From the IMG/VR virus record IMGVR_UViG_3300025838_000029, positions 62,001 through 89,399 of that record: a DNA stretch of 27,399 nucleotides. The stretch is one strand, 5' to 3'. This document shows, piece after piece, positions 9,514-25,279 of the stretch (positions within the stretch are counted from its first letter, which is position 1; every line of letters starts with the position of its first letter). Source of the stretch: an uncultured virus (IMG/VR IMGVR_UViG_3300025838_000029) (Duplodnaviria > Heunggongvirae > Uroviricota > Caudoviricetes). The translations under genes and the position numbers were made by a program. The notes beneath the pieces are model-generated. The model worked only from the letters and a program-made list of their open reading frames with translations, had not been told where the DNA came from and did no database searches.

Positions 9514-12500
9514 TGCCTGAAGATCGCGCAGATGCTCCCCTACCGGAATCAGTGGACATTTCGGAGGCTACTCCTGCACCTGTTATAAACTATGTTAATT
9601 ACACTCCCGCCCCGACTCAGGCGCCAATAAAATCATCATTGCCTCCTTTGACACCGCGTCCAACAGAAAAGCCAGCACAAGGTCTTCCGTTAGACGTTGT
9701 TAAGCAGAAAGTGGCAAAGTTAAAAGATGCCGGTTATTCGCAGGATGAGATTGCTGAATCTCTTATGAAGAATCCTTTTTTCGGCCCTCGTATATCTGAG
9801 GCGGCTGATAAAGGATGGGAATATCCAGAAATTTTTTCGAGATTTGGCCTCGATGGATATGATCCAACGGAAGGTGGTCCGTTAAAGACTCCATGGCGAT
9901 ATGTCAAAGCAGGCGTTGAATCTGCTGGGGAAATGATTGGAAACACTCTCCAGGGCGGAGCTATCGCTTCAGACCGAAGATCTTTATATGCTCCATATTA
10001 TGAGGACTACACCTCGTTTAAGAGCAAGTCTCCTGAAGAGCAGCAGCAGATTCTTAGTAAGATCGCTAATAGTGATATGGACTTGGAGGCCAGACAGAAT
10101 CTTACAAAAGAGTTCCGCAGGCTTCAAGAGGGGGCAAATCCTAGACAATTTGACATGCTGGCAAATCAGCCAGTTGAACAATTGCCTGGATACAAAGTTG
10201 GACAATGGTTCAAAGACACCACACAGGGACTGCTTAATCCTGAAGAGGAAAAGCTAACTGGCGTTAGGATTGCTAAAGCTGCTGCCCCTATCGTTCCTGC
10301 TATGGCTGCAACAGCACTTGCCGGTCCTGCTGGCCCAATGGCTCTGTTTGGCGGGTCTTCTTATCAAGAGGGTTATGAGAAGGCAAAAAAGGTTGGCGCC
10401 TCAGAAGAAGCTGCCCGTGACGCTGCTATGAAAGAAGCCGGTATTGGTGCTGCCGCTGGTGTTCTGGATGTTGGAGCCATATTAGGCCCAATAGCAAAAT
10501 ACTCTCCTGAACTCCTTAATAGGGCGCAAGCAATCCTTTATAAAGGTATTCAAAGCGGTGTCATTGGAAGTTCAGTCGGAGAAGCTCAAAAGTGGCTGAA
10601 TGCTCAGATTGAACGCACAACTTATGATCCAAATGCACAATATAAATTTGATCCGACAGAAGCTGCGATTGGATTTGCAGGGATGGCAATTCCAGGTGCA
10701 GTTCATGGGGCATTCCATGAGCAAGCCCCAAAAGAAACCGCTCCGACAGGAACAGATATTCCTCATCCATCATTGATTGCCCATGCTTATTGGAGGATTG
10801 ATGAGCTTGAGTCTATCTACAATGGAACAGAGGGAAACCCTCCAAGGGATCTAACTCCTGCTGAAGCTGCCGAATACGCATTTCTTCAGAAGAACAAAAA
10901 TAAGCCCGAAGAGCTTTCTAAAGTGATTCGTGGGACTGAGCCTTCTGAGCAACCGGAGCCGACTCAAGCGCCAACAGTTACGCCAGCCCCAACTGTTTCT
11001 AAATCTAATAAGCCTCCGAAAGCGACAAAGGCTCCTGTGCAGGCTGAGATACAAGCTCAACCTGAAGCGCAAGTTCAACCGGAAACACAGGATAAGGTTC
11101 AAGAGGCTGCTAACGCCCTTGTCGAAGAGGCAAAGCAGAATCCTACGGTTACAACACCTGAAAAAGATAGTGATATCTCCGCTCAAATTAAGGAGATGAT
11201 CAACCCAAACAACCCGAGAGATTCTGTCTACATTGCTCCAGGGAATGAGCATGAAATCCCTGTCAGTGCTTTAGATCATCCAGGTGTTGAGCTTGCTGAA
11301 AATCCCGTTAGTAAGGCTTTGTTGCTAACGACCAATATGGACAAAGCCATAGATTTTCAGAAGAACAGAGATCTCACAGAAGAAGAGAAAGCCAATTTGC
11401 TGGGTCTTTCTCAACCCAAAACTGAGGCGTTAAAAGATCCTAATGCTGTCGTCGTTCAAGGGAAGAATGAGGATGGCGCTATTGTTCATCAGGAGCTTAC
11501 CTCACAGGATAACCTGCCTAACTCTGTAGAGAACACAGCGAATAGGACTCCTGAAACTGGTCAAGTTGAAGTCGCCAGCACAACAGGAGCGCAAGCCCAT
11601 AGAGTTGGTGGTGATGATCAAGCTGTTCCTGTGGCAAAAGGAAAGGTTCCGACTCCCGATCCTGAGATACAGATTGCTGAGATCCGTAAGCAGATTGAAT
11701 CATTTGAAGAACATCGGGATCAAGCTCTTGAAGTTGGGGATACTCCTACGGCTCAGAATTGGCATAACCGTATAAGGGAGGCTAATGAACAAATAGCCGA
11801 GCTTCAAAGAGGTCAACCGTTAGAAAAAGAGCCAGCAGTTCAAGAGAGTGAACCCGCTTCTCCGCAGGCTCCGTCAACCGATATTCCTTGGGAAAATCAT
11901 TATCAACGAGCAGTTGATGTCGTTGGGAGCGAGAGTTTCCCGCTTAAAAGCAAACCACTTGCAGATAAGCTTGGGGTTGATGAGGCTATGGCAACAAGGC
12001 TTTTACAAGCCATGGCGTCCAGGGGAGCTATTAGGCAAACAAAGAATGGTGGGTTTTCACGAAATCCAGATAGAGGCCCGTTAGACTTTCTTACATTCTT
12101 GGCAGCAAAGGGAGGTCTTCGGGATGATGAAGGCCATCTTCTTGCTCAAAGTATGGACGCTCAGAGGATGGTTCCGAATTACGGACCTTTAATCCGTAAG
12201 AATGGAATGGGGATTGATCAGGCAGGGGAAGCTTTGTGGCAGGCCGGATATTTTGGCCCGACTGATTCTACGCCAAGGCCAACAGAGACAGAAGTATTAA
12301 ACAAGCTAAGTGAAGCCCTGAATGGGAGACTTCCTCTTGAAGAGCGGTATTCTGAATATGACCGAGATCGGGTGCAAAAGATTCAGGACACCAAGACCGC
12401 TAAAGATCGGGAGAAGCTTGAAAAAACAGCTAGGGCTGACATTGAGAAGCTTAATGAAGAAAAGACATATGGATTAACCCCAGAAGAAAAAGCTAGAGCG

Positions 12501-15500
12501 ATTGAGCTTTTGGTTGAGCATCCAGAGGATTTCTCTCCAGAGGAGGCTGTTGTTCACGTTCTCGATACGTCAATGATTGAGGATCTTCATGGGGCTATTG
12601 ACGTAGCAAGGGATGCACATGATGACGAGTTTTCCGATATACCGTTTGAGTGGCCAGCAGAGGTTGAACCTCCTCAACGAGGCGAAGAGGAGGGTAAAGG
12701 GACAGAAGTCTCTATCCCCACTTCAGAGGAGGAATCTGGCACGGTTGGCAAAGAACCTGGAGAAGGTGAACGCCAAGATCTCCGTGACAAAGAAATAGGT
12801 GATGTCATTGGTGCAGGGGAACGGACAGCCCCACCAATGGACAGAGAGCGTCAGCAGGCGGAAATAAGGGCGCGACAGGCAGGTAAGAAAAGAAGCGGAA
12901 AAGAACAAGAAGAACCGGGCGGGATGTTTGCCACGGAAGAAAAGGGGTTATTTTCCGAACCGAAGAAAACCGCTGATTATGGAACTCAGAATAAGGTCAT
13001 TACAGCAGACGCGGCGGAGAAAGCTAGAGAGCTTCTTCGCAAGAAATCAAATCAGATTAATGCTGGTATTGACCCTGAAACCATGTTGGCTGGTGTTACG
13101 CTTGCTGCCTATCACATAGAGGCAGGAACAAGAAAGTTCGTAGATTTTGCAAGGGCTATGGTTTCTGATGTCGGCGCATGGATTAAGCCGTACCTGAAGT
13201 CATGGTATAATGCGATCCGCGATTATCCGGGGTTGGAGGAAGCTGCCAAGGACATGACGCCGCATGAAGAAATGAATGCGGCCATGGATCAATTGGAAAG
13301 GGAAGGCTATGTATCAAGCGAATCCAGAGGTCTGGAACAAACTGGCGAGGGACCAAAAACTGAAAACGCCATGGGCAAAGAGGCTCTTCCCACTGAAGAG
13401 AGAGGAGCTTCACAAGGCGTTAGAGAAAGAAACGGAGAAGCTGAAGCAAGAGGGAATAACAAGCCCTCAAGTGAGGAGCAGCTTCCTTCAGATGGCGCCT
13501 CTTCTGTGGGAGAGAGAGGCAATAGCGAAAGAGACGCAGGAGAACCCGGCTTTGGGGCAGTGCCTGCCGAACGTGGAGGACGCCCAGGAGGCTACGATGT
13601 TAGCCAGCATGGACCGGCCATTGAGCATATCGAACCAGAAGAAGTTAATAAAACTGCTGGAGACTCCAAGACAGTAGCTCAGAGGTTTGCAGAGCAGAAG
13701 ATTGCAAACTCTCGTCCAGTTGTCTGGAACGATATTAATAACATCAGAGAGACATTACCCGCTCTATTCCCTGATCAACAAGATGATGTTCATAAGTCTG
13801 AAAAACGTCTGAGTGTTGCTCATGGGATTATGATTACCAACGGAACTGGCACCGGCAAGACATGGAGTGCTGGTGGTGTAATCGCTAGATTTGTCCGTCA
13901 GGGAAAAGAAGACATTCTTGTTGTTGCCCCCTCTCAGGACATCCTCACTGATTGGAAAGCTGCCCTTAAACATCTTGGTGTCGATGCCTCCGTTTTAGAA
14001 GGGACGCAGAAGTCTGGTAAGGGCGTAACACTTACTACCTATGCTAATCTTGGGGAAAATCGCCATATAGCGGATCGGAACTGGCATTTAGTTGTCGCAG
14101 ACGAAAGCGATAATCTTATGTCAGATCAAAAAGGGAATACCACAAAAGCTCTAAATAGCTTCAGGGCGATCACGAACCATCCCGACGCATTGTATATTAG
14201 AGCGGATATGGCTTTGAGGGATCTTAATGATCGTGTTGCAGATCTCTCAGAGCGTGTTCATAAAAATTATAACAACAAAGAACTGACCTCTCAGTGGATA
14301 AACGCCCAGAGAGAGCTTGAGCAAAAACGCAAAGAGTTGGTTGATGTATACAAAGATCAACCGCGATCAAAGGCTATATTCCTTTCGGCCACTCCATTTT
14401 CATATGACAAAACAACTGACTATGGAAATGGCTATCTGTTCGATTATCAAAAAGAAGGTAATAGAAGTGGGTATAACGTAGCTGAAGGTCGTAACCTTTT
14501 TATGGTTCAGAACTTTGGCTATCGGATGAGAAATGGGAAACTCACGGCTCCAGAAGCAAATGTTAATAGTGAGGTTCTTGAAAGAGATTTTCATGAACGC
14601 CTGAAGAAAGAAGGGGCTTTGATCGGGAGACGGTTGGAGGTTGATTCTGACTATGATCGTAAGTTCATATTAGTTAATGACGCTATTGGGAATAACATTG
14701 ACCGGCTTCTTGAGTTTTTGCGTGAATCTGATGACGGGAAATTCCGTCCGATCTATTCATTCGTTAATGATAGATTTGATTATCTTTCAAGGCAGAGGTT
14801 GCTTGAGGCAATCAAGGCCAATCACGCAATCCCTATTATTCGGGAACACCTTGCTCTTGGCAGAAAGGTTGTTGTCTTCCATGACTTCAATGAAGGTGGT
14901 GGATTCCATCCTTTTGATACGAGTGAAATTCCAAATAACCCTGTCTTTGTTACCGTCAATGGAAAGTCACATGAGTTCAATTTAAAAGACCTCGCAAACG
15001 AATTTCACGACAGGAACCCTGACGCAATAAAAATGGACTTCTCATCTATGAAAAGTCCGATTGAAACGATGACCAAGGCTTTTCCAGAAGCTCTTGTCTA
15101 CAATGGAACGGTAAGTTCCAAGAACAGGGCCACCATCAAGCAACTCTTTAATCAAGATGGTTCTGGCAGAGATGTCATTGTTATTCAATCGGCTGCTGGT
15201 AGAGCGGGAATAAGCCTGCACGACACAACGGGAGTCCATCAAAGGGTTTTAATTAATCTTGGTATGCCCACTCGGCCAACAACCTCAATTCAACAAGAGG
15301 GGCGCATTTATCGTACAGGGCAAAAGTCCGATGCAATGTTCCGGTATATGAATACTGGCACAGCATGGGAGCGGGAAGCATTTGCCAGTAGGATTGCTGA
15401 ACGGGCAAGCTCAGTTGAAAACCTTGGAATGGGGAACCAAGCACGTCAATTGAAGCAATCATTCATTGATGCCTTCAATGACACATCTGAGTACCCTCCT

Positions 15501-18500
15501 TCTCCTGAAGAGGGAAAAGGTGGGAAATCATTAGACCGTCAGACATTCAGTGATATGTCTGATTTTGAAAGAGCTAAAACTTATTACTTTGCAGAGCAGA
15601 AGAAGACGGGTCGCAGAGATCAGCGTGAGGGTGTTGACTATTTTCCAACACCAGAACCGTTGGCACAGAAGATGGTTGAATGGGCAAATGTTAAGCCCGG
15701 AGAGAAAATCCTTGAACCATCTGCTGGTCATGGCGCGATATCTCGTTATTTCCCAGAATCTACAGAACGCACTATCGTTGAGCCGTCTAAGGATCTTGCA
15801 ACCAGAGCCAGCCTAATGACTCCTGGCGCTAGAGTGGTGAACGATAAGTTTGAGAATCTGCATATCTCAAATAAGTACGATGGGATTGTTATGAATCCAC
15901 CTTTTGGCATTGGTGGAAAAATGGCAATTGAACATCTGGCTAAAGCTGCTTCCCATGTTCGGGAAGGAGGGAGGATCGTTGCCCTTCTCCCAGAAGGACC
16001 GGCAACCGATAAACGTCTTGCTGCATTTAGAGATAGTGATGCGGCAAAAGACCTTCATCTAGTTGGAACGGTATCCTTGCCGACTCATATGTTTGATCGG
16101 GCAGGAACAAACGTTAAGTCTCATGTTCTTATATTTGAAAAGCATACCGTTCCAAAACAGGCAAATCAGTATGGCTCTGATGTCGGAGATAAGATCCGAT
16201 CTGTTGTACACCATGCAGATCTGTCTAACTCTCCAAGCATTAACGATACGTTCAATCGACTTGAGCATTTGTCGATGCCTGATCGTATTGAGCCGGTGAC
16301 TAAAGAGGTTGAGGCTCCAGAAGTTCCATCAAATGGAAAGGTTGTCGTTAGTGGGCTGGCCCTGAGTTCAATAACCAATAAAGACGGGTCTATCATGGTC
16401 AGCCCGACCAAGCGTCTTGGCGCCAATGATTATGCTCGGTTTATGCGGGTTGGTGAGAGATATGGGGGGGTCGAAAATGATTATTATAGTGGATTATCAT
16501 TTAAATCTCCCGATGAGCGCAGTGCGTTTTTTAATGCTTTAGAGCGTGGTGAAACAGGGAATGAGCCTTCCGCTGAAGCTCAAAGGCAAATTGATAATGG
16601 TGGATTAGGCGTTACCTTTGATCGTAAGCAAGGGTTGCGTGAAGATGGTGCTGTTTATGAGAAACTTCATACTCAGACCAGAAAAAAGCTTTTTTATGCA
16701 AAGCCTGATAACAGAGTATCCCCTGAGACTTATCAAAAGCTAAAACAGATTGCTGGAGAAAATGGCGGAGGATTCTGGGACCGCTATGAGAAAGCATTCA
16801 GGTTTAATGACGAAGATAGCCGTCAAGCATTTATGAATAAAGTTACAGGGTCACTCCCCCTGAAGAGTGGAGACTTGCGGGTTGGCAAGAAAATGGACGC
16901 ATTATATGTCCATAAGTCTGCCATCGATACGCTTCCAAAGGATGCTCAAAATCGTATTGAAAGAGCAAAGCCTCCGTTTGATTGGGATGTTGCCAAGATA
17001 AAAAGAGACAAAGATGGCGCTCTTGAGAATGTCTCTCTTATTGAGGCAAAAGATTTTGATGAAGCTGATGAGCCGAGTGTCGGAAGATCCTTTGTCATAG
17101 ATAGAGACGGAGAGACTCGTATCATCCCAGCTTCTGGGAAAATTTATCATGGTAAATGGCAAATGGTTAAGTCCGACTATCAGGGCTTTGATGTTGATGC
17201 CAGCAAGGAAAGAACACGGCTTCTTGACAGCGTAACGTCAACTGAGGACAAGAGACGGTACGGTCAAAAAGATTACATGGATAATGTTGTCGCGCCTAAG
17301 CTGTCTAACAATGCAAAATTAGCAGATCGGTTCTTAACTGATCGGGACAAAGTTCCTGAGACAGTAACAACTCTCGACTACAACCCAAAAGATGGGATTG
17401 TTCAAAAAATTAGCTCGGCTAACACGGTGCGTCGTCAAGCTGCACAAGTTTTCGGCAATGATAAGTTTTATCCTAGATCCGAAACGCCGTCTTTTAATCT
17501 TGATCTTGGTGGCGGAAAATTCCCTGAAGGAACAGAACGACTTGCTGAAAAGGGAATAACCAATCTCATCCATGATAAATATAATCAGAGTGAGCAGCAT
17601 AACAGGGATGTTGTTGAGAAGGTAAAGGCTGAGAAGGGAACCGGAATCGTTTCTGCCACTAATGTTCTAAATGTCATCAAGGAACCAATGGCAAGGCTTG
17701 ACCTTATTCGCCAAGCTGCAAAAGGTTTGAAGGATGATGGGGTCGCTTATTTCCAAATCCATGAAGGTGATAAGAGTGGAGAAGGGAAAGAGACAAGTGA
17801 TGGGTGGCAAGCCAATAAGCTGACATCAACCTATCTTCCTATGGTCAGGCAGTATTTTGGCAAGGTTAAGCAGGTTGGCAGGCCAGATGCTCCTAAAGGC
17901 AATCTAATTATTGCCGCAGAGCCTAAGAGAATACCGGGACAAACTATTTGGGAAGGCACTGAGCCTTGGGATACCAAAGGCAATACCGTGCCTATGTTCT
18001 CGGGGGACGTGCGTAATGAGCATTACTTCCCTGAAGATGGTGAGGGCCTGATTGCTCATAATGAATCTTTAAGCCCAGGAGATGCTGAGTTAGTTCATAA
18101 CGATGCACGGGCATATGTTTTGGATCGAGGAAACGAAACCGGCCATGAGCATGGGATTGCTGTTCATTCTGATGGGCGAGTTGAACATTTTACGGAAGGA
18201 AAAGAGGATACTCTTTCTATAAAGAAAGTTGCTCCAGAGCTATATCGTGAGATGGAGCAAGCTGGTAACAACATTGACGTTCATCATAATCACCCAGAGG
18301 GAACGAGCGCCCCACTATCTGAAAGTGATTTGCAGCTATCGACTCTTGATGGTGTCAATCGTGTAATTGCCCATGCTGGAGACGGTGTATTTTCCGTTGC
18401 AAAATGTTCGGACGCCTTAAACCAATTCGGCAATGCTGGAGATCGGCAAAAGCTTATCCGAAATTCATACAGAGATGCTCTTCGGGCCATACAAGAAAGG

Positions 18501-21278
18501 ATATTCACTGGTATCCGAGATGGAGAGATTTCTGAAGAGGGGATCCATAACATTGGTGATTATGAGCATATTATAAACATGGCCCTGGATCGGGTTGGGT
18601 TGATTGATTATGTTTCAAACCATCAGATTGAAGACACTCCTCTCAATCGGGAACTTGCTCAGAAGGCAATTCTTGCTGCATGGGATAGCGCAAATGAAAA
18701 TGGATTTAGAGTAAGGAGTAGCCAGGATGCTGTCAGGCTTGATGCTAAATTATTCCATGATGGAACCTTTGCCGAAGTTGCGAAAAATTTTGGTGAACCT
18801 TCAGGAACTCTCCAAGGAGGATCCAGAGGCGAAGGAAGAATTGGAGAAACTGCGAGAGACTATCCGCTGGAGAGAGAAAATAAATCTTCTTCCCAAGAAG
18901 GAGCAGCGGAATCGTTAGGTCTTAAATCTGGCGACCTAAGAACAGAAGATGAGAAACGTGGGGCTGTAACAATCTCTCATGTCATCGATAAGTGGAGCGC
19001 GGAAGGACCGGGGAAGGGTCCACTTCGGCGCCCTGTTCAAGTCCTTGAGGGAGCGGCTGATTATGTTAAGGAAACACTTCCTATAACGAGTCAAATTTGG
19101 AAATGGGCAAGTCGTCGCATTTTCCCTGGTTCAGCAGATGCTTTCGCTAAATCAGCAGCAAGAACAATCCGTCATATGTATGGGCAGTCCTATCTCTGGG
19201 AGATCCAGATGGGACATAAGCTCGATGAAATATCCAATCGCCTCGATGCTCTTCCTGTCGATGAATGGAACAAGATCGGGATTGCTTGGGCCAAAGGGGA
19301 CTATGAATCAATTCCGGAAGAATACCGCGAGGCGTTTAAACAAGCAGATGACTTTACAAAGAAAGCCACAGAGAGGCTTCAGTCTCTTGGGGTTCTGAAA
19401 GATGCAATGGGGCATTATGTAGGAAGAATTTGGAAGAAGCGTGGAGAGAATGCCCCGTCAACTGATGAGGAAGGAAAGAAGATATTCAATCAGTTGATGA
19501 GCAAGTTCCCCCTTCTTGGAAGGAAATCCTTCCTGAAGAAAAGATATTTTGATGAGTATGAGGATGCTATCGCGGCAGGAATGGAGCCTGTCTACAACCC
19601 TCTGAAGACACAGATGGTTAAGATTGCTGAGATGAACAGATATTATACAGGGACAACTCTTGTCCGTGCGGCGAAAGAAAGCGGTATAGCAAAGTTCTTT
19701 GCAAGAGGATCTCAGGTACCGGACGGTATGTTAGAGTTGGCTGGTCCTGAATTTCAACGCCCATTTATGAAGGTCATTGAGGGAGAAAAGACTACGTCTG
19801 TTCTTCCTGGCGCTTGGTATGCCCCAGAGGGATTTGCTCGGGTCTACAACAATCATGTTTCAAGAGGGTTCTCTGGAACACCAGAAGGTGAACCTGTGCA
19901 GATGCTTAGGAGCATTGGTGGGTTTATGAACCAAGCACAGTTGGGTTTGTCTATGTTCCACCCTGTCTTTACAACGTTTGACGCCATGAGTAGCACCATG
20001 GCTATTGCCGTTGATCAGGCTGTTCGTAAAGATTTTGGTCTTGCTGCTCAGACATTTGCAAAATCTATGAACCCATTCGGTGTTTATAAGGACGGGGATA
20101 ATTTCCTAAAGGCAGTCCTTGATCCTGACAAGGCAACTCCAGATCAGAAGTTACTGATTAATGCTCTTGGAGAGGGTGGCGGAAGAGTTTGGATGGAGAG
20201 AGTTCTGCGCCCGACTGATGAAGGGGCAATGGTTGCTAAAAGGATTTCGGATATACCCGCAACATTAGGAACGGCATGGAAGCTTGCGTCTCATAAGTAT
20301 GACGGAAGTGGGATGACTAATCAAATGAGGCGAGTGTTTAATGTCGCCGGTCGGGTTATGGAGACGATGTCGTCTCCGATTATGAACCATTTGGTTCCTC
20401 GTCAGAAGTTAGGTGTGTTCTCTCGTATGGCGGCTGATTGGCTTGCTGCAAATCCAAATGCAGGAAGTTTAGAGCGTATCACTAAAATGCAAGATATCTG
20501 GGAAAGCGTAGATAACCGTTTGGGTCAAATGGTTTATGACAACCTTTTCTGGGACAAGACTCTTAAAGAAGCAAGCTTCCTTGCTGTCCGGTCTGTTGGT
20601 TGGAACATGGGGTCGATCCGAGAGATTGGTGGAGGACTGACTGATTTCACAGGAGCCATAAAGGATAAGATTGCTGGTAGAGAGGCCGAGTGGACAAACA
20701 GAATGTCATATCTCATCGCTATGACAGCTAGTACGGCCATCACCGGGGCAATAATGAATCGTCTCTTTACGGGAGAAGGTCCAAAAGAATTAAAGGATTA
20801 TTTCTTCCCTCGTACTGGAGAAACGAGGTTGGTTAAACTTCCAGGTCGCAATCACCCTGTGATGGAAGTTCCTGAGAGGTTGTCGATCCCCTCTTACTTC
20901 AAAGACATTATGGCTTGGACAACCCAACCGGGTCAGACTGCGAAGAATAAGATTCATCCCTTATTTAGTGCAATGGCTCAAGCTTGGGATAACCATGATT
21001 ACTACGGTGATATCATCTGGAATAGAGATGACCCTGCTTATAAACAGGCATTGGATATGGCAAAGTTTGCTGGCTCAACATTGATTCCGTTCTCAATCAC
21101 CGGAACAATGAAAATGTGGAAAGAGCGTCCAGGTCCAGTTGCCACTATGGGTATGCTTGGGTTCCAGCCTGCACCTGGATATATAGCCGCCCCAGAAGCA
21201 AGACAAGCATGGGATGATTACATCCATGCTCAAGAGGTTAGAAAGAAAGCAGCGCGTGAGCTTAAAAATAGTAACTAG
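9513..21278 (+). CDS. Giant DarB-like polyvalent virion protein: SF2 (Strawberry-notch-like) helicase, N6-adenine DNA MTase, second MTase module, JAB/MPN domain, helical C-terminal region
   Basis: 11.8-kb ORF; AGGA SD before ATG 9513. Helicase motifs: GTGTGKT (13842), VADESD (D at 14100), LSATP, AGRAGISLHD, QQEGRIYRTGQ (15291). MTase motifs: DYFPTP, EPSAGHG (15714), NPPF (15894). Second MTase: NLDLGGGKF (17496), NVLNVI (17661). JAB: E...HNHP...SESD (18147-18329). Confidence 0.92.
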   Translation: MPEDRADAPLPESVDISEATPAPVINYVNYTPAPTQAPIKSSLPPLTPRPTEKPAQGLPLDVVKQKVAKLKDAGYSQDEIAESLMKNPFFGPRISEAADKGWEYPEIFSRFGLDGYDPTEGGPLKTPWRYVKAGVESAGEMIGNTLQGGAIASDRRSLYAPYYEDYTSFKSKSPEEQQQILSKIANSDMDLEARQNLTKEFRRLQEGANPRQFDMLANQPVEQLPGYKVGQWFKDTTQGLLNPEEEKLTGVRIAKAAAPIVPAMAATALAGPAGPMALFGGSSYQEGYEKAKKVGASEEAARDAAMKEAGIGAAAGVLDVGAILGPIAKYSPELLNRAQAILYKGIQSGVIGSSVGEAQKWLNAQIERTTYDPNAQYKFDPTEAAIGFAGMAIPGAVHGAFHEQAPKETAPTGTDIPHPSLIAHAYWRIDELESIYNGTEGNPPRDLTPAEAAEYAFLQKNKNKPEELSKVIRGTEPSEQPEPTQAPTVTPAPTVSKSNKPPKATKAPVQAEIQAQPEAQVQPETQDKVQEAANALVEEAKQNPTVTTPEKDSDISAQIKEMINPNNPRDSVYIAPGNEHEIPVSALDHPGVELAENPVSKALLLTTNMDKAIDFQKNRDLTEEEKANLLGLSQPKTEALKDPNAVVVQGKNEDGAIVHQELTSQDNLPNSVENTANRTPETGQVEVASTTGAQAHRVGGDDQAVPVAKGKVPTPDPEIQIAEIRKQIESFEEHRDQALEVGDTPTAQNWHNRIREANEQIAELQRGQPLEKEPAVQESEPASPQAPSTDIPWENHYQRAVDVVGSESFPLKSKPLADKLGVDEAMATRLLQAMASRGAIRQTKNGGFSRNPDRGPLDFLTFLAAKGGLRDDEGHLLAQSMDAQRMVPNYGPLIRKNGMGIDQAGEALWQAGYFGPTDSTPRPTETEVLNKLSEALNGRLPLEERYSEYDRDRVQKIQDTKTAKDREKLEKTARADIEKLNEEKTYGLTPEEKARAIELLVEHPEDFSPEEAVVHVLDTSMIEDLHGAIDVARDAHDDEFSDIPFEWPAEVEPPQRGEEEGKGTEVSIPTSEEESGTVGKEPGEGERQDLRDKEIGDVIGAGERTAPPMDRERQQAEIRARQAGKKRSGKEQEEPGGMFATEEKGLFSEPKKTADYGTQNKVITADAAEKARELLRKKSNQINAGIDPETMLAGVTLAAYHIEAGTRKFVDFARAMVSDVGAWIKPYLKSWYNAIRDYPGLEEAAKDMTPHEEMNAAMDQLEREGYVSSESRGLEQTGEGPKTENAMGKEALPTEERGASQGVRERNGEAEARGNNKPSSEEQLPSDGASSVGERGNSERDAGEPGFGAVPAERGGRPGGYDVSQHGPAIEHIEPEEVNKTAGDSKTVAQRFAEQKIANSRPVVWNDINNIRETLPALFPDQQDDVHKSEKRLSVAHGIMITNGTGTGKTWSAGGVIARFVRQGKEDILVVAPSQDILTDWKAALKHLGVDASVLEGTQKSGKGVTLTTYANLGENRHIADRNWHLVVADESDNLMSDQKGNTTKALNSFRAITNHPDALYIRADMALRDLNDRVADLSERVHKNYNNKELTSQWINAQRELEQKRKELVDVYKDQPRSKAIFLSATPFSYDKTTDYGNGYLFDYQKEGNRSGYNVAEGRNLFMVQNFGYRMRNGKLTAPEANVNSEVLERDFHERLKKEGALIGRRLEVDSDYDRKFILVNDAIGNNIDRLLEFLRESDDGKFRPIYSFVNDRFDYLSRQRLLEAIKANHAIPIIREHLALGRKVVVFHDFNEGGGFHPFDTSEIPNNPVFVTVNGKSHEFNLKDLANEFHDRNPDAIKMDFSSMKSPIETMTKAFPEALVYNGTVSSKNRATIKQLFNQDGSGRDVIVIQSAAGRAGISLHDTTGVHQRVLINLGMPTRPTTSIQQEGRIYRTGQKSDAMFRYMNTGTAWEREAFASRIAERASSVENLGMGNQARQLKQSFIDAFNDTSEYPPSPEEGKGGKSLDRQTFSDMSDFERAKTYYFAEQKKTGRRDQREGVDYFPTPEPLAQKMVEWANVKPGEKILEPSAGHGAISRYFPESTERTIVEPSKDLATRASLMTPGARVVNDKFENLHISNKYDGIVMNPPFGIGGKMAIEHLAKAASHVREGGRIVALLPEGPATDKRLAAFRDSDAAKDLHLVGTVSLPTHMFDRAGTNVKSHVLIFEKHTVPKQANQYGSDVGDKIRSVVHHADLSNSPSINDTFNRLEHLSMPDRIEPVTKEVEAPEVPSNGKVVVSGLALSSITNKDGSIMVSPTKRLGANDYARFMRVGERYGGVENDYYSGLSFKSPDERSAFFNALERGETGNEPSAEAQRQIDNGGLGVTFDRKQGLREDGAVYEKLHTQTRKKLFYAKPDNRVSPETYQKLKQIAGENGGGFWDRYEKAFRFNDEDSRQAFMNKVTGSLPLKSGDLRVGKKMDALYVHKSAIDTLPKDAQNRIERAKPPFDWDVAKIKRDKDGALENVSLIEAKDFDEADEPSVGRSFVIDRDGETRIIPASGKIYHGKWQMVKSDYQGFDVDASKERTRLLDSVTSTEDKRRYGQKDYMDNVVAPKLSNNAKLADRFLTDRDKVPETVTTLDYNPKDGIVQKISSANTVRRQAAQVFGNDKFYPRSETPSFNLDLGGGKFPEGTERLAEKGITNLIHDKYNQSEQHNRDVVEKVKAEKGTGIVSATNVLNVIKEPMARLDLIRQAAKGLKDDGVAYFQIHEGDKSGEGKETSDGWQANKLTSTYLPMVRQYFGKVKQVGRPDAPKGNLIIAAEPKRIPGQTIWEGTEPWDTKGNTVPMFSGDVRNEHYFPEDGEGLIAHNESLSPGDAELVHNDARAYVLDRGNETGHEHGIAVHSDGRVEHFTEGKEDTLSIKKVAPELYREMEQAGNNIDVHHNHPEGTSAPLSESDLQLSTLDGVNRVIAHAGDGVFSVAKCSDALNQFGNAGDRQKLIRNSYRDALRAIQERIFTGIRDGEISEEGIHNIGDYEHIINMALDRVGLIDYVSNHQIEDTPLNRELAQKAILAAWDSANENGFRVRSSQDAVRLDAKLFHDGTFAEVAKNFGEPSGTLQGGSRGEGRIGETARDYPLERENKSSSQEGAAESLGLKSGDLRTEDEKRGAVTISHVIDKWSAEGPGKGPLRRPVQVLEGAADYVKETLPITSQIWKWASRRIFPGSADAFAKSAARTIRHMYGQSYLWEIQMGHKLDEISNRLDALPVDEWNKIGIAWAKGDYESIPEEYREAFKQADDFTKKATERLQSLGVLKDAMGHYVGRIWKKRGENAPSTDEEGKKIFNQLMSKFPLLGRKSFLKKRYFDEYEDAIAAGMEPVYNPLKTQMVKIAEMNRYYTGTTLVRAAKESGIAKFFARGSQVPDGMLELAGPEFQRPFMKVIEGEKTTSVLPGAWYAPEGFARVYNNHVSRGFSGTPEGEPVQMLRSIGGFMNQAQLGLSMFHPVFTTFDAMSSTMAIAVDQAVRKDFGLAAQTFAKSMNPFGVYKDGDNFLKAVLDPDKATPDQKLLINALGEGGGRVWMERVLRPTDEGAMVAKRISDIPATLGTAWKLASHKYDGSGMTNQMRRVFNVAGRVMETMSSPIMNHLVPRQKLGVFSRMAADWLAANPNAGSLERITKMQDIWESVDNRLGQMVYDNLFWDKTLKEASFLAVRSVGWNMGSIREIGGGLTDFTGAIKDKIAGREAEWTNRMSYLIAMTASTAITGAIMNRLFTGEGPKELKDYFFPRTGETRLVKLPGRNHPVMEVPERLSIPSYFKDIMAWTTQPGQTAKNKIHPLFSAMAQAWDNHDYYGDIIWNRDDPAYKQALDMAKFAGSTLIPFSITGTMKMWKERPGPVATMGMLGFQPAPGYIAAPEARQAWDDYIHAQEVRKKAARELKNSN
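12619..12798 (+). CDS. Candidate overprinted small basic protein (+1 frame inside the giant gene)
   Basis: AAGGGA precedes tandem ATGs at 12619 and 12622. Amphipathic-looking LSGQQRLNLLNEAKRR...LSPLQRRNLARLAKNLEKVNAK. Occupies an acidic disordered linker. Could be a shadow ORF. Confidence 0.3.
   Translation: MMTSFPIYRLSGQQRLNLLNEAKRRVKGQKSLSPLQRRNLARLAKNLEKVNAKISVTKK
13309..13677 (+). CDS. Candidate overprinted helical protein, 122 aa (+1 frame inside the giant gene, just upstream of the helicase)
   Basis: Purine-rich GGAAAGGGAAGG before ATG 13309. Natural protein-like composition (MYQANPEVWNKLARDQKLKTPWAKRLFPL...APLLWEREAIAKE). The host frame over the same span is G/E/R-rich and low in complexity. 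Confidence 0.6.
   Translation: MYQANPEVWNKLARDQKLKTPWAKRLFPLKREELHKALEKETEKLKQEGITSPQVRSSFLQMAPLLWEREAIAKETQENPALGQCLPNVEDAQEATMLASMDRPLSISNQKKLIKLLETPRQ
18727..18918 (+). CDS. Candidate overprinted 63-aa helical-hairpin protein (+1 frame, directly after the JAB domain)
   Basis: TAAGGAG at 18712-18718, 8 nt before the ATG. Sequence EPLPKLRKILVNLQELSKEDPEAKEELEKLRETIRWREK. The host frame becomes a G/E/R/S linker here. Confidence 0.55.
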   Translation: MLSGLMLNYSMMEPLPKLRKILVNLQELSKEDPEAKEELEKLRETIRWREKINLLPKKEQRNR

Positions 21279-21322
21279 ACAAGTTCTTTTATGTGGTGAT
21301 AAGATTTTTTATGGAGGCAATT

Positions 21323-21637
21323 GTGCCTGAGATTGATGTTGGTCTTTACCAAGATGTCGGCGCTCTGAAGGCCATGTCTGAAGAACGTGGCAAGCAGATC
21401 GAGGCTCTCTTTGCCCTGACAAGAGAGATCTCTTCAAAGATGCTGACCAAGGATGACCTCTCTAAATATTCCGCAGACTGCGCGACAACCTGTGCTGATA
21501 ATGATGCTCTTGTTGAGCGGGTTCTTAGCCTTGAGACTGACCGTAAAATGGTCAAACGGGCTTTTGCTGCGAGTGTAGGCGTCCCAGCCTTTCTAGCGTC
21601 GGTTATTGAAACCGCACGTTATATCGTAGGGAAATAA
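21323..21637 (+). CDS. Coiled-coil protein with C-terminal hydrophobic helix (holin/XhlA-like lysis-module protein)
   Basis: GGAGG at 21313-21317, then GTG 21323. ERVLSLE coiled coil followed by AFAASVGVPAFLASVI. Directly upstream of the lysozyme. Confidence 0.65.
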   Translation: MPEIDVGLYQDVGALKAMSEERGKQIEALFALTREISSKMLTKDDLSKYSADCATTCADNDALVERVLSLETDRKMVKRAFAASVGVPAFLASVIETARYIVGK

Positions 21638-21641
21638 TCAT

Positions 21642-22076
21642 ATGAATGGACAGGATCTAACAAAATCCTACGAGGGATGTACTCTCGTAGCGATTAAGGA
21701 TTCCCGTGGGGTGGAGATTGGTTGGGGGCATAATTCTCCTGATATCCAGCTTGGGATGACATGGACTCAGTCACAGGCTGATCAGGCTTTTGATTATGAT
21801 TATGGCAAGGCTATGGATAATGCCAGAAGGATCCTTGGTATTGCAGTTTGGTCAATGCTTAATGAACCTCGCAAAGCCGTTGTTGCCGACATGATCTATG
21901 AGCTTGGTCCGAGTGGGTTTTCTGCTTTTAAGCAATTGATAGCTGCAATTGATGCCGGGAATTATTCAGCGGCTGAATCTGCAATGCTCGATAGCTTATG
22001 GGCGAAACAAGTTCCGAACAGAGCTAACCAGAATGCCAAAATTATGCTAACCGGAGAATGGCCAAATGGACAATAA
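21642..22076 (+). CDS. Endolysin, T4-lysozyme-like (GH24)
   Basis: YEG...KD..G.EIGWGH aligns to T4L E11/D20/IGIGH. LNEPRKAVVADMIYELG..G...F and MLDSLWAKQVPNRA......TGEW align to the T4L C-terminus. Confidence 0.92.
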   Translation: MNGQDLTKSYEGCTLVAIKDSRGVEIGWGHNSPDIQLGMTWTQSQADQAFDYDYGKAMDNARRILGIAVWSMLNEPRKAVVADMIYELGPSGFSAFKQLIAAIDAGNYSAAESAMLDSLWAKQVPNRANQNAKIMLTGEWPNGQ

Positions 22077-22293
22077 CACGACTGCTATTACGACAACGAT
22101 GTCGGCAGGGCTTGGGACGGCACAGGTTGCCGATCTCGTCCTGTGGGCGCTTGATGGTTTTCCGAAAGAGGGAAATCAGACTGCTGCATTTGCGATTGCA
22201 GCGGCTTTGATCATTGCGGCTCATGGTGTTCAGAAAGGCGTATCTGCCCTTCTTGCGAAGAAAGCCACTCCTGAAGTTACTCCTACTCCATAA
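22066..22293 (+). CDS. Putative holin (2 hydrophobic segments, basic C-terminal tail)
   Basis: GGAG SD. Overlaps the lysozyme stop. Hydrophobic AAFAIAAALIIAAHGV segment. Confidence 0.6.
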   Translation: MDNNTTAITTTMSAGLGTAQVADLVLWALDGFPKEGNQTAAFAIAAALIIAAHGVQKGVSALLAKKATPEVTPTP

Positions 22294-22500
22294 GGAATCT
22301 TATGTTTTAACACCTTCCCCGCCCTAAAGGACGGGGATTTCCGCAACCGGAGGCGCATGCTCGCGCCCGAGAATATTACAAGCAGCATTAACGTCACGGT
22401 CATGGATGGTTCCGCAATGCTCACAAGTCCATTCTCTTACTCCAAGGTCTGCGATACCTCTCGGCCTCCCATTGGGCAACGCGCCACAACAGGAGCAGAC
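22287..22500 (-). ncRNA. Predicted TnpB omegaRNA/reRNA (5' boundary approximate); guide from flank AACATAAGATTCCTTATGGA
   Basis: Inferred from established TnpB biology: the scaffold overlaps the tnpB 3' end and the right end, and the guide is the adjacent flank. Only the right-end hairpin is directly seen. Confidence 0.5.
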
Positions 22501-23567
22501 TTGGGAACTGTATGCTTCGTTGACAATGCTGAACTTCCGGCCAAGCGCAATCGCTTTATAAGCAAGCTGGTTTCTAAACATCGTCCATCCGGCATCGCTG
22601 ACGGATTTCGCCATTTTGGTTTTCATCAATCGGGATGGGCTGACGTTACCAACCACGATATGTCCGTATTGACGGACAATTCTTGTGCTTTCGACATGCA
22701 GGAAATGCCTGCGCTGTCTGGCAATCTTGGCCTGAATATCTCTGGCGCGACGTTTTTGTTTGCGCCGTTGATACAGAGCCAACTTTTCCTGAGAGGATCG
22801 GAAAAACTTTGGAGACTCGATCTTGGTTCCGTCGCTCATAGTGGCGAAAGTTTTCAAGCCAAGATCAATCCCAACGGCGAGGCCATCCTGTTTTTCCCCA
22901 TCTGGCAACTCGATCTGGATGTTGACAAACCAATGTCCTTGGCTATCGCAGGACAAGTTCCACGATTTAGGATTTCCGTTCTCTGGAATGGGGCGAGACA
23001 ACCAAAGCCGGTAGTCACGACCAAGAAAACGCAGAGTATCCCCGTCCAATTTAGCAGGACGTTTGAAATTGCTGAATGGAATCCAGTCGAGGTTGCGCTT
23101 GGCCGACCGGAAGCGCGGCGTCTTTGGAAAACATGCGCTCCGAGAATCGGCAAACTTGGCACAAACCGCATCAACCGTGTCGGAGTGAATACCAAGTTCT
23201 TTGGTCACACCTCGGCACAAATTGGCAAGATCGAACGCAGAAGGACGCTTGATAGTCATCCCGGCGCGGTATCTGGATGCGGCAACGCGGTCAGTTTCGC
23301 AACAATAATTCCAGACGAAATTAACCGCTCTAGCCTGCGTCCTAAGCGCACGACGAACGGCTTTATTTCCATCCTTGATTCGGTATTGGTGCGTCAATAT
23401 CATCGAAAAGGGCGTCTTTCTGGTAATGACAGAAGCTCGTCTAGGGACTGTGCGACGTTGCAAGCGTCCACAGTCCCGATCAATTTACCCCACTTTTGTC
23501 TCAACATCAACAAGGGAGCGGCTTTCCTCCCCGGCCTAAACGCCGGGGTTTCCAGCCGAAACATCGG
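22307..23567 (-). mobile_element. IS200/IS605-family element, tnpB only (IS1341-like, non-autonomous)
   Basis: Left-end hairpin CCCCGGC-CTAAAC-GCCGGGG (23529-23548) with guide GAAA. Right-end hairpin TCCCCGCCCT-AA-AGGACGGGGA (22316-22337) with guide AAAT and terminal TTAA. Target TCAT on the minus strand at 23568-23571. No tnpA and no target duplication. Confidence 0.88.
22324..23403 (-). CDS. tnpB: RNA-guided endonuclease TnpB (~359 aa)
   Basis: N-terminal MILTHQYRIK...VNFVWN. RuvC-I VGIDLGLKTFA. KSVSDAGW..FRNQLAYKA. Zn finger CSCC...CEHC. RuvC-III HDRDVNAACNI. Confidence 0.95.
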   Translation of the reverse strand: MILTHQYRIKDGNKAVRRALRTQARAVNFVWNYCCETDRVAASRYRAGMTIKRPSAFDLANLCRGVTKELGIHSDTVDAVCAKFADSRSACFPKTPRFRSAKRNLDWIPFSNFKRPAKLDGDTLRFLGRDYRLWLSRPIPENGNPKSWNLSCDSQGHWFVNIQIELPDGEKQDGLAVGIDLGLKTFATMSDGTKIESPKFFRSSQEKLALYQRRKQKRRARDIQAKIARQRRHFLHVESTRIVRQYGHIVVGNVSPSRLMKTKMAKSVSDAGWTMFRNQLAYKAIALGRKFSIVNEAYSSQVCSCCGALPNGRPRGIADLGVREWTCEHCGTIHDRDVNAACNILGREHAPPVAEIPVL

Positions 23568-23915
23568 ATGAGAAAATTATTTATCGTCCCTCTGCTTCTC
23601 TTAGCTGGGTGCAACAGTGACGGAACCCTGAAGCCGGGTGTCCTGACATTCGTCAACAACGTCGTCACTGCTTCTTGTCAGATTGATCAGGCAATTCCTG
23701 GTCTTGTGTCACAGGGGGCGCTTATTACAGCTTTGGTTGCTCCTGAATATGCCCCAGAGGTTGCTTTGGCAACGAAGGTTGATCAGTTGGCGCATCCTGC
23801 TGTTGTCGCTGCGTGTAATGCGGCAGCGGCGGCTCAAGCGAATGCTGCTGCAAATCATCCTGTGGCTGTAGCTGTAACCCCGATCTCAACAACGGTAACG
23901 GTTCCTGCGCGATGA
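23568..23915 (+). CDS. Lipoprotein in the lysis module (possible spanin-like or outer-membrane lysis factor)
   Basis: MRKLFIVPLLLLAGC is a signal peptide II with an LAGC lipobox. Ala/Val-rich body with two further Cys. ATGA coupling to the lipase gene. Confidence 0.8.
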   Translation: MRKLFIVPLLLLAGCNSDGTLKPGVLTFVNNVVTASCQIDQAIPGLVSQGALITALVAPEYAPEVALATKVDQLAHPAVVAACNAAAAAQANAAANHPVAVAVTPISTTVTVPAR

Positions 23916-24637
23916 CGACACCAGATTTTCAGAGGCTTCACCAGCTTGCTCAGTTGGCAAGCCTCGTCTATCAGACAGATGCAAATGTCCTGGCTAAGGG
24001 CGCCGAGAACTTAGGGTTTGAGTTTGTCGGTCTGGTTGGGAATAAAGAATGCCAAGCAATGGTTCTCACTGAGTTTGGTGGGCAACTTATTGTAATCCGG
24101 GGAACTCAAGTGGAAGAGAATTTCTCTCCATGGGAGTTATGGGATGACGCCAACCCAAATCATACTGAGGTTGGTGGTGGTGCAAAGGTTCGGTCAGGGG
24201 CGTTTGATCCTCTGAAGGATCTATGGAAAGACATCTGGGATCTTGTAGATCCGAGTGAACCGCTTACCATCACAGGACACTCTCTTGGTGGTCAGAGGGC
24301 GGCGATATCAGCCTTCCTCGTTCCTAGGGGGGTTAAGTTATCGGTTGTTGCATTTGCCCCTCCGAAGGGAGGAAATAAGGAGTTCTGGACAGCGGCTTAT
24401 TCTGGTCGGACTCTTCCTGTTATCGTTGGTAGAAGCAATGACTTTGCCCTTAGTTGGGCCTCTCTTGATACCGTGACCTGTCAACCATGCCCGGTTCTTC
24501 ACCTTAAAGAAGACGGTGGGTGGGAGATGTTATCCTCCTGGCCGTTCCTCACTGCTTCGATTCCGGATCACGATGTTGATAAGTATGTTTCGGATCTTGA
24601 GTCCCTCCTCCCTAAGAAGGAAGCTCCCAAAGAATGA
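23912..24637 (+). CDS. Class 3 lipase (alpha/beta hydrolase)
   Basis: Motifs IVIRGT, V.SG.F, nucleophile elbow ITGHSLGG and FAPPKGGN. Candidate catalytic Asp (RSND) and His (DHDVDKY). Confidence 0.9.
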   Translation: MTTPDFQRLHQLAQLASLVYQTDANVLAKGAENLGFEFVGLVGNKECQAMVLTEFGGQLIVIRGTQVEENFSPWELWDDANPNHTEVGGGAKVRSGAFDPLKDLWKDIWDLVDPSEPLTITGHSLGGQRAAISAFLVPRGVKLSVVAFAPPKGGNKEFWTAAYSGRTLPVIVGRSNDFALSWASLDTVTCQPCPVLHLKEDGGWEMLSSWPFLTASIPDHDVDKYVSDLESLLPKKEAPKE

Positions 24638-24795
24638 GTGATTGGCAGAAGCAATGGGAAGCCGCTGTCGTCGCAAGTTGGGTTGCGGCTCAGATGGGAA
24701 TTGCTCTCTGGACTAAGACTTTGATTGGCTCTCTTGAACAGGAGAAGCCAAAATTAAAACTCGTAACGATGAATGGGAGACGGATTGATGACTGA
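24634..24795 (+). CDS. Small hypothetical protein, 53 aa (below the ORF-track cutoff)
   Basis: ATGA overlap with the lipase stop. MSDWQKQWEAAVVASWVAAQMGIALWTKTLIGSLEQEKPKLKLVTMNGRRIDD. Fills the gap exactly and overlaps the next start. Confidence 0.65.
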   Translation: MSDWQKQWEAAVVASWVAAQMGIALWTKTLIGSLEQEKPKLKLVTMNGRRIDD

Positions 24796-25279
24796 CCCTG
24801 CTAATGAACACCTACAGAAGCAAACCCTGACTATTCAGGTCTATGCTCCTGACCACCCAGATCGTACCACGACGCCGATTTTCAATCATACCAGGGACAA
24901 ACTGATTGCTAATAACCCGAACGCAAAGTGCTGGATCGACAATGAGCATTGTGACAAAGACAACCCGCTTGAATTGCACCATAGCGTCGTCGAGTGGTGT
25001 GACAGTACGGCTGTTGATTGGGCCAAAGTGGCTGTCCTTGTCCCTGAGTTCGACTGGAAATCTTTTGACCCGTCAAAACCAGAAACATTTATCGATTCCG
25101 AATGGAACGCTAACCTCGTCTTATGCAAGAAGCATCATGTCGGGGCTGACCACGGCATCCATATGATGCCATATCCGTTGTGGCGTTTGCAGAAGCTGAA
25201 GCTGGCGTCGTTTGTCTATTCGCCCGACGAAGAAGCCTTGGCAAACGCTGCCATTGGCGCTTTAAGCGCAGGATCATAA
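24788..25279 (+). CDS. HNH-like His/Cys-rich protein
   Basis: GGGAGA SD before ATG 24788. Pattern C.I...C....LELHH...N..LCKKHH....HGIH. Confidence 0.7.
   Translation: MTDPANEHLQKQTLTIQVYAPDHPDRTTTPIFNHTRDKLIANNPNAKCWIDNEHCDKDNPLELHHSVVEWCDSTAVDWAKVAVLVPEFDWKSFDPSKPETFIDSEWNANLVLCKKHHVGADHGIHMMPYPLWRLQKLKLASFVYSPDEEALANAAIGALSAGS

Follow-up and report, generated by a model that had tools for sequence, protein, structure and literature searches.

How might a transposon that lies between two genes of a packed phage operon, on the strand opposite to both, spare the gene downstream of it? The question is raised by an IS200/IS605-family element of an uncultured tailed virus (IMG/VR IMGVR_UViG_3300025838_000029; Caudoviricetes), of which we analysed positions 62,001 to 89,399, a stretch of 27,399 nucleotides (nt) that forms the final 27.4 kb of the 89.4-kb virus record and is called here the window. 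The element carries the tnpB gene and is inserted between a small open reading frame (ORF) of 75 amino acids (aa) and a lipoprotein gene. Antisense to tnpB, one frame is open across the whole insertion and stops on the start codon of the lipoprotein gene. Comparison with related elements gives good support for selection on such an open antisense frame, locked in phase, and the frame is probably a translation-level device that makes insertions at operon junctions non-polar; its translation, and the rescue of the gene behind it, we infer from these comparisons.

A first-pass annotation of this DNA had described the + strand frame as free of stops from 22294, the base following the TAA (22291-22293) of the 75-aa ORF, to TGA 23569-23571, and all of these coordinates were confirmed, as was the overlap of the TGA with the ATG (23568-23570) of the 115-aa lipoprotein ORF. 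The codon alignment of the frame with tnpB stands as well: there is no TTA, CTA or TCA among the 27 leucine and 26 serine codons of the gene. The chance of finding no such codon is about 1e-5 under the phage's own synonymous usage (in a set of 81 ORFs totalling 25,897 codons, the three account for 3.0%), and 5.5e-4 under the usage of 22 relatives that are matched in GC content at third codon positions (GC3) and have not preserved an open antisense frame. On the other hand, the phase that the frame shares with the upstream ORF looks coincidental: only 6 of 41 relatives have an upstream ORF whose stop, in that phase, precedes the end of the element.

To place the window copy among its relatives, tnpB genes with their flanks were taken from viral, genome and metagenome collections. 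A tblastn match was found at 205 loci (designated below by L numbers); 137 had a full-length, uninterrupted tnpB in one high-scoring segment pair, and these represented 126 distinct DNAs. To obtain the number of TTA, CTA and TCA codons expected in each gene, we measured what fraction of its codons that gene ends in A in the remaining four-fold boxes and in the AAR, GAR and CAR boxes. By the ratio of observed to expected codons, whose distribution is bimodal, the genes were classed as open (at most 0.3, n = 56), closed (above 0.6, n = 53) or intermediate (n = 17). The open class has 51 antisense stops in the aligned frame against 463 expected (ratio 0.11), and the closed class 694 against 719; the latter ratio, 0.97, indicates that the null expectation is sound. 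The comparison with synonymous-codon controls that had been suggested in the first-pass annotation came out in favour of its idea, with genes devoid of stops numbering 18 of 56 against 0.05 expected. Among ORFs that flank open-class elements the ratio is 0.71, and flanking ORFs overall are mildly depleted (0.71-0.86).

The depletion is specific to one frame. Within the GC3 range 0.55-0.75, the aligned phase has on average 0.9 stops in open genes (n = 51), whose remaining two antisense phases have 13.5 and 8.2, and 7.0 stops in closed genes (n = 22). Avoidance of a DNA motif resembling the element's own cleavage or target site was also considered and rejected, the same trinucleotides being undepleted in the other two phases. 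At lower GC3, 19.4 stops are expected in L177 (0.28) and 2 are present; for L072, L100 and the window element (0.50-0.53) the expectation is 12-14 and the count 0-1. The stops that remain in the open class cluster 6-34 codons from the 3' end of tnpB or in its first few codons. In a maximum-likelihood tree one clade is open in 24 of its 25 tips, and the clade of the window element is mostly open; closed lineages nested in open clades (L007/L064, L182, L109/L200, L087) have about as many stops as expected, that is, where the constraint appears to have lapsed the stops have returned to the expected count.

Openness and phase also extend to parts of the element that lie outside tnpB. Profile models of the two ends, built from clear cases, located both of them at 33 distinct loci, of which 29 are open, 3 closed and 1 intermediate. 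Elements are 1150-1590 nt long, and 22 of the 29 open ones have a length congruent to 1 modulo 3. In open elements without tnpA, the spacer from tnpB to the target motif keeps the phase in 12 of 15 cases, with 12 different lengths between 44 and 242 nt (binomial P = 2.9e-4), and stops in these spacers number 13, 3 and 34 by frame. In the 14 open elements longer than 1400 nt, the length of those bearing tnpA, the stops of the interval number 33, 2 and 73 by frame, and where tnpA was located it is read in a frame other than the spanning one in 10 of 13 open elements. Codon usage of tnpB cannot explain the openness or phase of the spacers and of the tnpA region. In L080, L158, L152, L172, L070, L010, L013, L029 and L015 tnpA is overlapped by the spanning frame over its full length, giving a same-strand, doubly open stretch of approximately 137-150 codons.

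The frame ends where a host gene begins. ATGA directly follows the left end in 27 of the 29 open elements with mapped ends, and related copies at different sites diverge right outside a conserved TTAAC or TTGAC on one side and ATGA on the other; therefore, the target motif adjoining the left end is TCAT. The phase check proposed in the first-pass annotation showed that in 25 of these 29 elements the aligned frame shares its phase with the TGA in the target ATGA, the exceptions being L068, L075, L084 and L145. In the same number the frame ends no more than 3 nt from the ATG of ATGA, 24 times on the in-phase TGA or a tandem TGA-TGA and once, in L003, on a TAG directly before ATGA. In the window, the stop overlaps the downstream start in ATGA 23568-23571, as in coupled gene pairs. 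With the element removed in silico, the best upstream ORF would reach into an ATGA overlap at 7 of the 29 loci, and at 17 it would end 2-40 nt short of the ATG. At present, the right edge, reading T-TAA or T-TGA, supplies the upstream ORF with its stop at 11 open-class loci.

Gene pairs identified by Pfam are stronger evidence for the host-gene context than the count of long downstream ORFs. L071 lies between a YqaJ-like exonuclease gene and recT, L069 between two transporter genes (POT/MFS and MFS) and L029 3' of a baseplate-hub gene, and in L174 the ORF starting at the target ATG matches positions 1-127 of the 127-position tail-terminator profile from its residue 5. Other co-directional genes confirmed by Pfam at the target ATG encode an aldehyde dehydrogenase and an alpha/beta hydrolase, and further downstream ORFs have signal-peptide-like N-termini, as does the lipoprotein of the window. 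The strand of the longest flanking ORF was tried as a measure of co-directionality and abandoned for these verified pairs, being too noisy in GC-rich DNA. Insertion inside genes, at in-frame methionine codons (L067, L073, L158, L146, L110), was rejected because the upstream 'ORFs' lack a Pfam match and resemble shadow ORFs of GC-rich DNA and the downstream N-termini are full-length or signal-peptide-like. In L066 the element lies between tandem ORFs resembling metallo-beta-lactamase-fold or class-II phosphodiesterase proteins (L066:1-372 and 1663-2223); the upstream one matches the C-terminal and the downstream one the N-terminal part of the profile, as expected for two genes and not for one that was split.

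The most probable explanation for these observations is as follows. Since ATGA, the complement of TCAT, is a start codon plus A, the element lands directly before host starts and antisense to host genes. Its right edge closes the upstream gene, and in this clade its host-sense strand is kept stop-free in one frame from about 20-120 nt inside the right end (in the window, from the very edge), antisense through tnpB, then through the left-end spacer, with tnpA where present, and the left-end hairpin, up to the TGA of ATGA or to a TGA-TGA or TAG directly ahead of the ATG. Transcripts reading through the insertion could thus stay covered by ribosomes over 1.2-1.6 kb and avoid Rho-type polarity; uncoupling of translation from transcription within an operon is described to expose intragenic Rho sites and silence the downstream genes (PMC12360218, in excerpt). 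Ribosomes would then terminate on top of the host ATG and re-initiate there, which would replace the ribosome-binding site that the insertion displaced by 1.26 kb. In the window, ribosomes arriving from AAGGA or from the ATG-TTT-TAA mini-ORF (22302-22310) could pass on to an ATG at 22357 or 22402. The end of the frame recreates an ATGA junction of the kind native to these operons, such as that at 23912-23915.

An alternative is that the frame is selected for the element's own ends, either as a route of read-through expression of tnpA or as a translated antisense RNA that tunes tnpB and its guide (omega) RNA. The anatomy lends it some plausibility, as any host-sense transcript must be antisense to tnpB and the guide RNA, and in the relatives that have it tnpA lies downstream on the strand of the spanning frame; tnpA is in that very frame in L181, L145 and L146, and the tnpA of L105 itself stops on the target TGA. 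However, the frame has been kept in many tnpA-less lineages that differ to about 60% aa identity (the window element, L003, L004 and most members of the upper clade). Moreover, in the 10 of 13 elements mentioned above it crosses tnpA in another phase, past the start of that gene and up to the host ATG, and both the stop-on-ATG geometry and the GGAG-type motifs before host ATGs point to the host gene. We therefore regard this alternative as unlikely.

It is even less probable, and in our judgement very unlikely, that the frame is a true overlapping gene encoding a functional protein, although it is long (ATG 22357 opens 404 aa), is conserved in 56 relatives and has a favoured in-frame ATG. In 30 pairs of open-class genes at 80-97% aa identity, the ratio of nonsynonymous to synonymous substitution rates (dN/dS) is 0.07-0.20 for the sense frame, with dS up to 1.8, and 1.05-3.8 for the antisense frame; 7 pairs of closed genes, whose antisense frame is broken, give 0.81-2.35 and are no different. 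The C-terminal third of the frame differs wholly between elements, being a spacer of arbitrary length in some (44-242 nt), whereas in others it reads through tnpA in one of two frames. No conserved ribosome-binding site accompanies the frame, and Pfam and PHROGs scans of its translation in the window gave no match. The antisense dN/dS values argue for selection on openness and phase, and selection thus appears to act on translatability and not on a protein product.

A passive origin of the frame as a shadow ORF, of which the codon-aligned antisense type is the commonest, in a gene shaped by a present or former host that rarely uses TTA, CTA and TCA, was the caveat of the first-pass annotation and can be dismissed as most improbable: most open-class genes do have a GC3 of 0.6-0.75, at which these codons are scarcer, and the flanking ORFs share a mild depletion, but the GC3-matched relatives stand at 0.97 against 0.11 in a bimodal distribution, only one antisense phase is depleted, the frame persists at GC3 0.28-0.53, phase and openness continue through spacers and across an out-of-frame tnpA to the target ATGA, nested lineages revert, CAT is favoured at one particular histidine codon, and the dS values rule out recent copies of one source.

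Several points weigh against the proposal that the frame carries ribosomes to the host gene. The first of them concern initiation of the long frame, its weakest link. Among the relatives, neither a conserved ribosome-binding site nor a single conserved start was found. The GGAGG (22349-22353) noted in the first-pass annotation 3 nt before ATG 22357 does exist; it is not conserved, and in many relatives the ATG is an ACG. A better conserved candidate is ATG 22402-22404, also in frame, which is the window counterpart of an antisense ATG formed when the invariant histidine of the HDRD motif is encoded by CAT. This codon is used in 41 of 51 open genes, compared with 205 of 526 (39%) of their other histidine codons (Fisher test, 1e-8); in closed genes it is found in 18 of 43, which is not significant. 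No Shine-Dalgarno motif precedes ATG 22402 in the window copy, so initiation there would need re-initiation or a leader-independent start. Likewise, a GGAG, GAGG or AGGA lies 4-17 nt before the host ATG in 18 of 29 open elements and is lacking in the window copy, where everything would consequently rest on termination-reinitiation. Approximately half of open-class elements have one conserved in-frame antisense stop, at the leucine codon of an ...NIL... stretch (L071, L080, L144 and L174 are examples); it lies some 68-77 nt away from the right end and about 8 codons upstream of the histidine-derived ATG; this is perhaps a fixed point of termination and re-initiation.

Further reservations concern the generality of the trait and the sampling. 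Stops in the antisense frame of related elements, which the first-pass annotation had named as evidence against its idea, are found in the 53 of 126 genes that are closed; open clades do keep the frame, and the trait is clade-specific, not TnpB-wide. At least three closed elements (L007, L064, L105) share the ends and the ATGA and yet persist, which indicates that an open frame is not essential for survival. The target ATG opens at least 60 codons, or at least 30 up to the end of the locus, in 22 of 29 elements, against a background of 91 of 197 at other ATGA sites in co-directional flanks (P = 0.001), a comparison that is weak alone, and it is the first possible start in its frame in 12 of 22 cases versus 16 of 55, which is not significant (P = 0.065). 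Phage late operons are often antiterminated, and Rho polarity would be irrelevant there. The 126 rows are distinct sequences rather than independent insertions (L010 and L015 occupy the same site), and closed elements (3 of 33) are under-sampled in the end mapping because the seeds of the end models are open-class members. The open and closed classes are defined by the depletion itself; the findings on spacers, frame ends and product use other features and are independent of this classification. Finally, the right edge of the window element is uncertain by 2 nt because an empty site was not recovered. The chances are, in our judgement, about even that a whole clade of the IS605 family has specialised as translatable gene-junction parasites, which would combine a target motif complementary to start codons, a right end providing a stop, an open strand selected without regard to product and a handover of ribosomes to the host ATG.

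In other respects the element is typical of the IS200/IS605 family (Table 1). Both ends have subterminal hairpins rather than terminal inverted repeats, and no target-site duplication is visible in the window. Read in the host sense, the right end has the conserved TTAAC or TTGAC after some variable bases, and the left end finishes with a G followed by ATGA. The ambiguity of the right edge (22305-22307) is due to a run of T. Empty sites were sought in four ways: by distant blastn against phage records, where only 3' ends of tnpB matched; through relatives of the lipase-like neighbour gene, which led only to the sister phage and its copy of the insertion; by an endolysin search of four virus records; and by a flank-plus-flank pattern scan (0 matches). 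None was recovered. The element is present in a single copy in the 89.4-kb record, and the sister phage (L002) has an identical copy at the same site. In the closest non-identical relative (69% aa identity; L005:1426-2593) a frameshift or stop disrupts tnpB; the 89-kb virus record that carries it is unrelated and without the endolysin of this phage.

TnpB is recognized by Pfam OrfB_IS605 (7e-17), Cas12f1-like_TNB (1.1e-23) and phrog_506 (3.6e-76), and its HDRD and CxxC..CxxC (four cysteines) columns are invariant in the alignment. The longest ORF starts at TTG 23463 (379 aa). Alignment with ten relatives places the start at a conserved methionine, ATG 23403-23401, which is the likeliest one and corrects the first-pass annotation, leaving a non-coding left end of about 164 nt. 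The antisense ORF of 404 aa (22357-23571, +) is longer than tnpB in either version (379 or 359 aa; 22324-23463, -); crude longest-ORF gene picking preferred it to tnpB, and annotation pipelines may do likewise. Relatives with the same ends bear a tnpA (Y1/HUH type) divergent from tnpB, with HxHLL..SPSYF motifs read in the sequence; the window element has none. On the - strand of 22294-22459, Rfam gave only matches below threshold, to HgcC (21.9 bits, gathering score 50, E = 0.048) and sot0042 (16 bits, E = 0.52), RNA families that have been described from the 3' ends of tnpB in IS1341-type elements (PMC4615843, in excerpt). Strand and place of both matches are those expected of the guide RNA scaffold. 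No intron family, group I included, was among the four Rfam matches at E ≤ 1 within 21000-25000.

Table 1. Features of the window that bear on the element and its surroundings
Feature	Positions	Strand	Remarks
Element	22307-23567	-	IS200/IS605 family, tnpB-only (IS1341-like), 1261 nt; right end at the low, left end at the high coordinate
tnpB	22324-23403	-	359 aa from the conserved methionine; stop 22324-22326; start ATG 23403-23401
Right-end subterminal hairpin	22317-22336		Overlaps the final codons and the stop of tnpB; kept in 37 seed sequences
Left-end subterminal hairpin	23529-23548		Kept in 22 seed sequences; spanning frame reads ..LPGLNAGVS..
Target motif	23568-23571		TCAT, ATGA on the + strand; ATG is the lipoprotein start, TGA the spanning-frame stop
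Presumed omega-RNA region	22287-22460	-	Scaffold at the 3' end of tnpB plus guide into the flank, presumed from family knowledge
Element-spanning open frame	22294-23571	+	426 codons stop to stop; in-frame ATGs 22357, 22402
AAGGA	22292-22296	+	Probably the ribosome-binding site that served the lipoprotein gene before the insertion (putative role)
Two-codon mini-ORF	22302-22310	+	ATG TTT TAA; stop contributed by the right end of the element
3922-aa ORF	9510-21278	+	Translation read by eye
114-aa ORF		+	Member of the array at 9510-25279
Endolysin	21642-22076	+	Phage_lysozyme (Pfam), phrog_7
Upstream host ORF	22066-22293	+	75 aa; stop TAA 22291-22293
Lipoprotein	23568-23915	+	115 aa (MRKLFIVPLLLLAGC...); signal peptide and LLAGC lipobox in the translation
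Native ATGA stop-start overlap	23912-23915	+	Lipoprotein gene / class-3-lipase-like gene

The sizeable ORFs between 9510 and 25279 are all on the + strand, with tnpB as the sole exception. The first-pass annotation called the lipoprotein gene interrupted and the 75-aa ORF a holin gene. The lipoprotein gene is in fact intact, the insertion lying between its probable ribosome-binding site and its ATG. The name holin is no more than a label based on a location 3' of the endolysin gene, the 75-aa ORF having no match in Pfam and PHROGs scans. The lipoprotein found no family in the same two scans. The junction of its gene with the lipase-like gene has the same geometry as the junction at the end of the element. 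Promoter and terminator scans of 21200-24700 returned counts inside the shuffle expectation. The endolysin gene shares its last 11 nt (22066-22076) with the 75-aa ORF, and the 3922-aa ORF has, by eye, helicase-like and N6-adenine-methyltransferase-like motifs (e.g. of NPPF type).

A separate problem is how such an element would relate to known systems. The closest functional analogue is the IStron, an IS605- or IS607-type element joined to a group I intron, which is likewise a TnpB transposon with a device limiting its cost to transcribed genes (PMC10690162, PMC4227781, both in excerpt). The IStron is described as limiting this cost by splicing itself out of RNA (PMC10690162, same excerpt), whereas here no intron was detected and the proposed remedy, an open frame with a stop-start overlap, would act at translation. 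Term look-ups in the portions consulted of a 2026 review (PMC13565253) and of the IStron preprint (PMC10690162) found no mention of such a remedy. Long ORFs antisense to known genes are also represented by pop, laoB and ano of E. coli O157:H7 (PMC7103648, PMC5810103, PMC5960689); these are argued, in the excerpts consulted, to code for proteins, unlike the present frame, in which openness and phase are preserved and not the aa sequence. With ordinary IS200/IS605 elements (IS605-like and IS1341-like) the window element has in common a TnpB with RuvC and zinc-finger parts, subterminal hairpins, a fixed motif adjacent to the left end, the lack of terminal inverted repeats and a presumed guide RNA region at the 3' end of tnpB. 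It differs from them by an antisense spanning frame that appears to be selected and is phased to a motif complementary to a start codon, a trait absent in 53 of 126 relatives. Translational coupling through ATGA or TGATG has the same junction geometry, of which 23912-23915 is a native example. In usual coupled pairs the upstream partner is a gene; here, it is an unconstrained frame of 426 codons on a mobile element, with a stop taken from the target site. Rickettsia palindromic elements and inteins are in-frame mobile elements tolerated within coding sequences in a manner compatible with translation; they join the host protein, unlike this element, which lies between genes and would give a separate, presumably useless polypeptide. 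Full-text searches, with subscription-only papers and supplements outside their scope, brought up no report of an antisense frame that spans an element and is under selection, of a target motif complementary to start codons or of IS605-family elements that couple translation.

Cas12 descends from TnpB elements, which are among the commonest genes of prokaryotes. The means by which these elements limit the cost to their hosts are under active study, with the intron-carrying IStrons as the main answer described to date. If the proposed mechanism is true, it would explain how insertions of 1.2-1.6 kb persist in packed phage operons and in chromosomal ones, and it would tie the choice of a target motif to the translation signals of the host. 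It would add a third route to harmless insertion, at the level of the ribosome, beside intron splicing in IStrons and protein splicing in inteins. Annotators would be warned that the longer antisense ORF (404 versus 359-379 aa) is not the gene. Selection would then act on an ORF purely for its translatability, and these elements would provide a clear natural case of an ORF kept only in order to be read.

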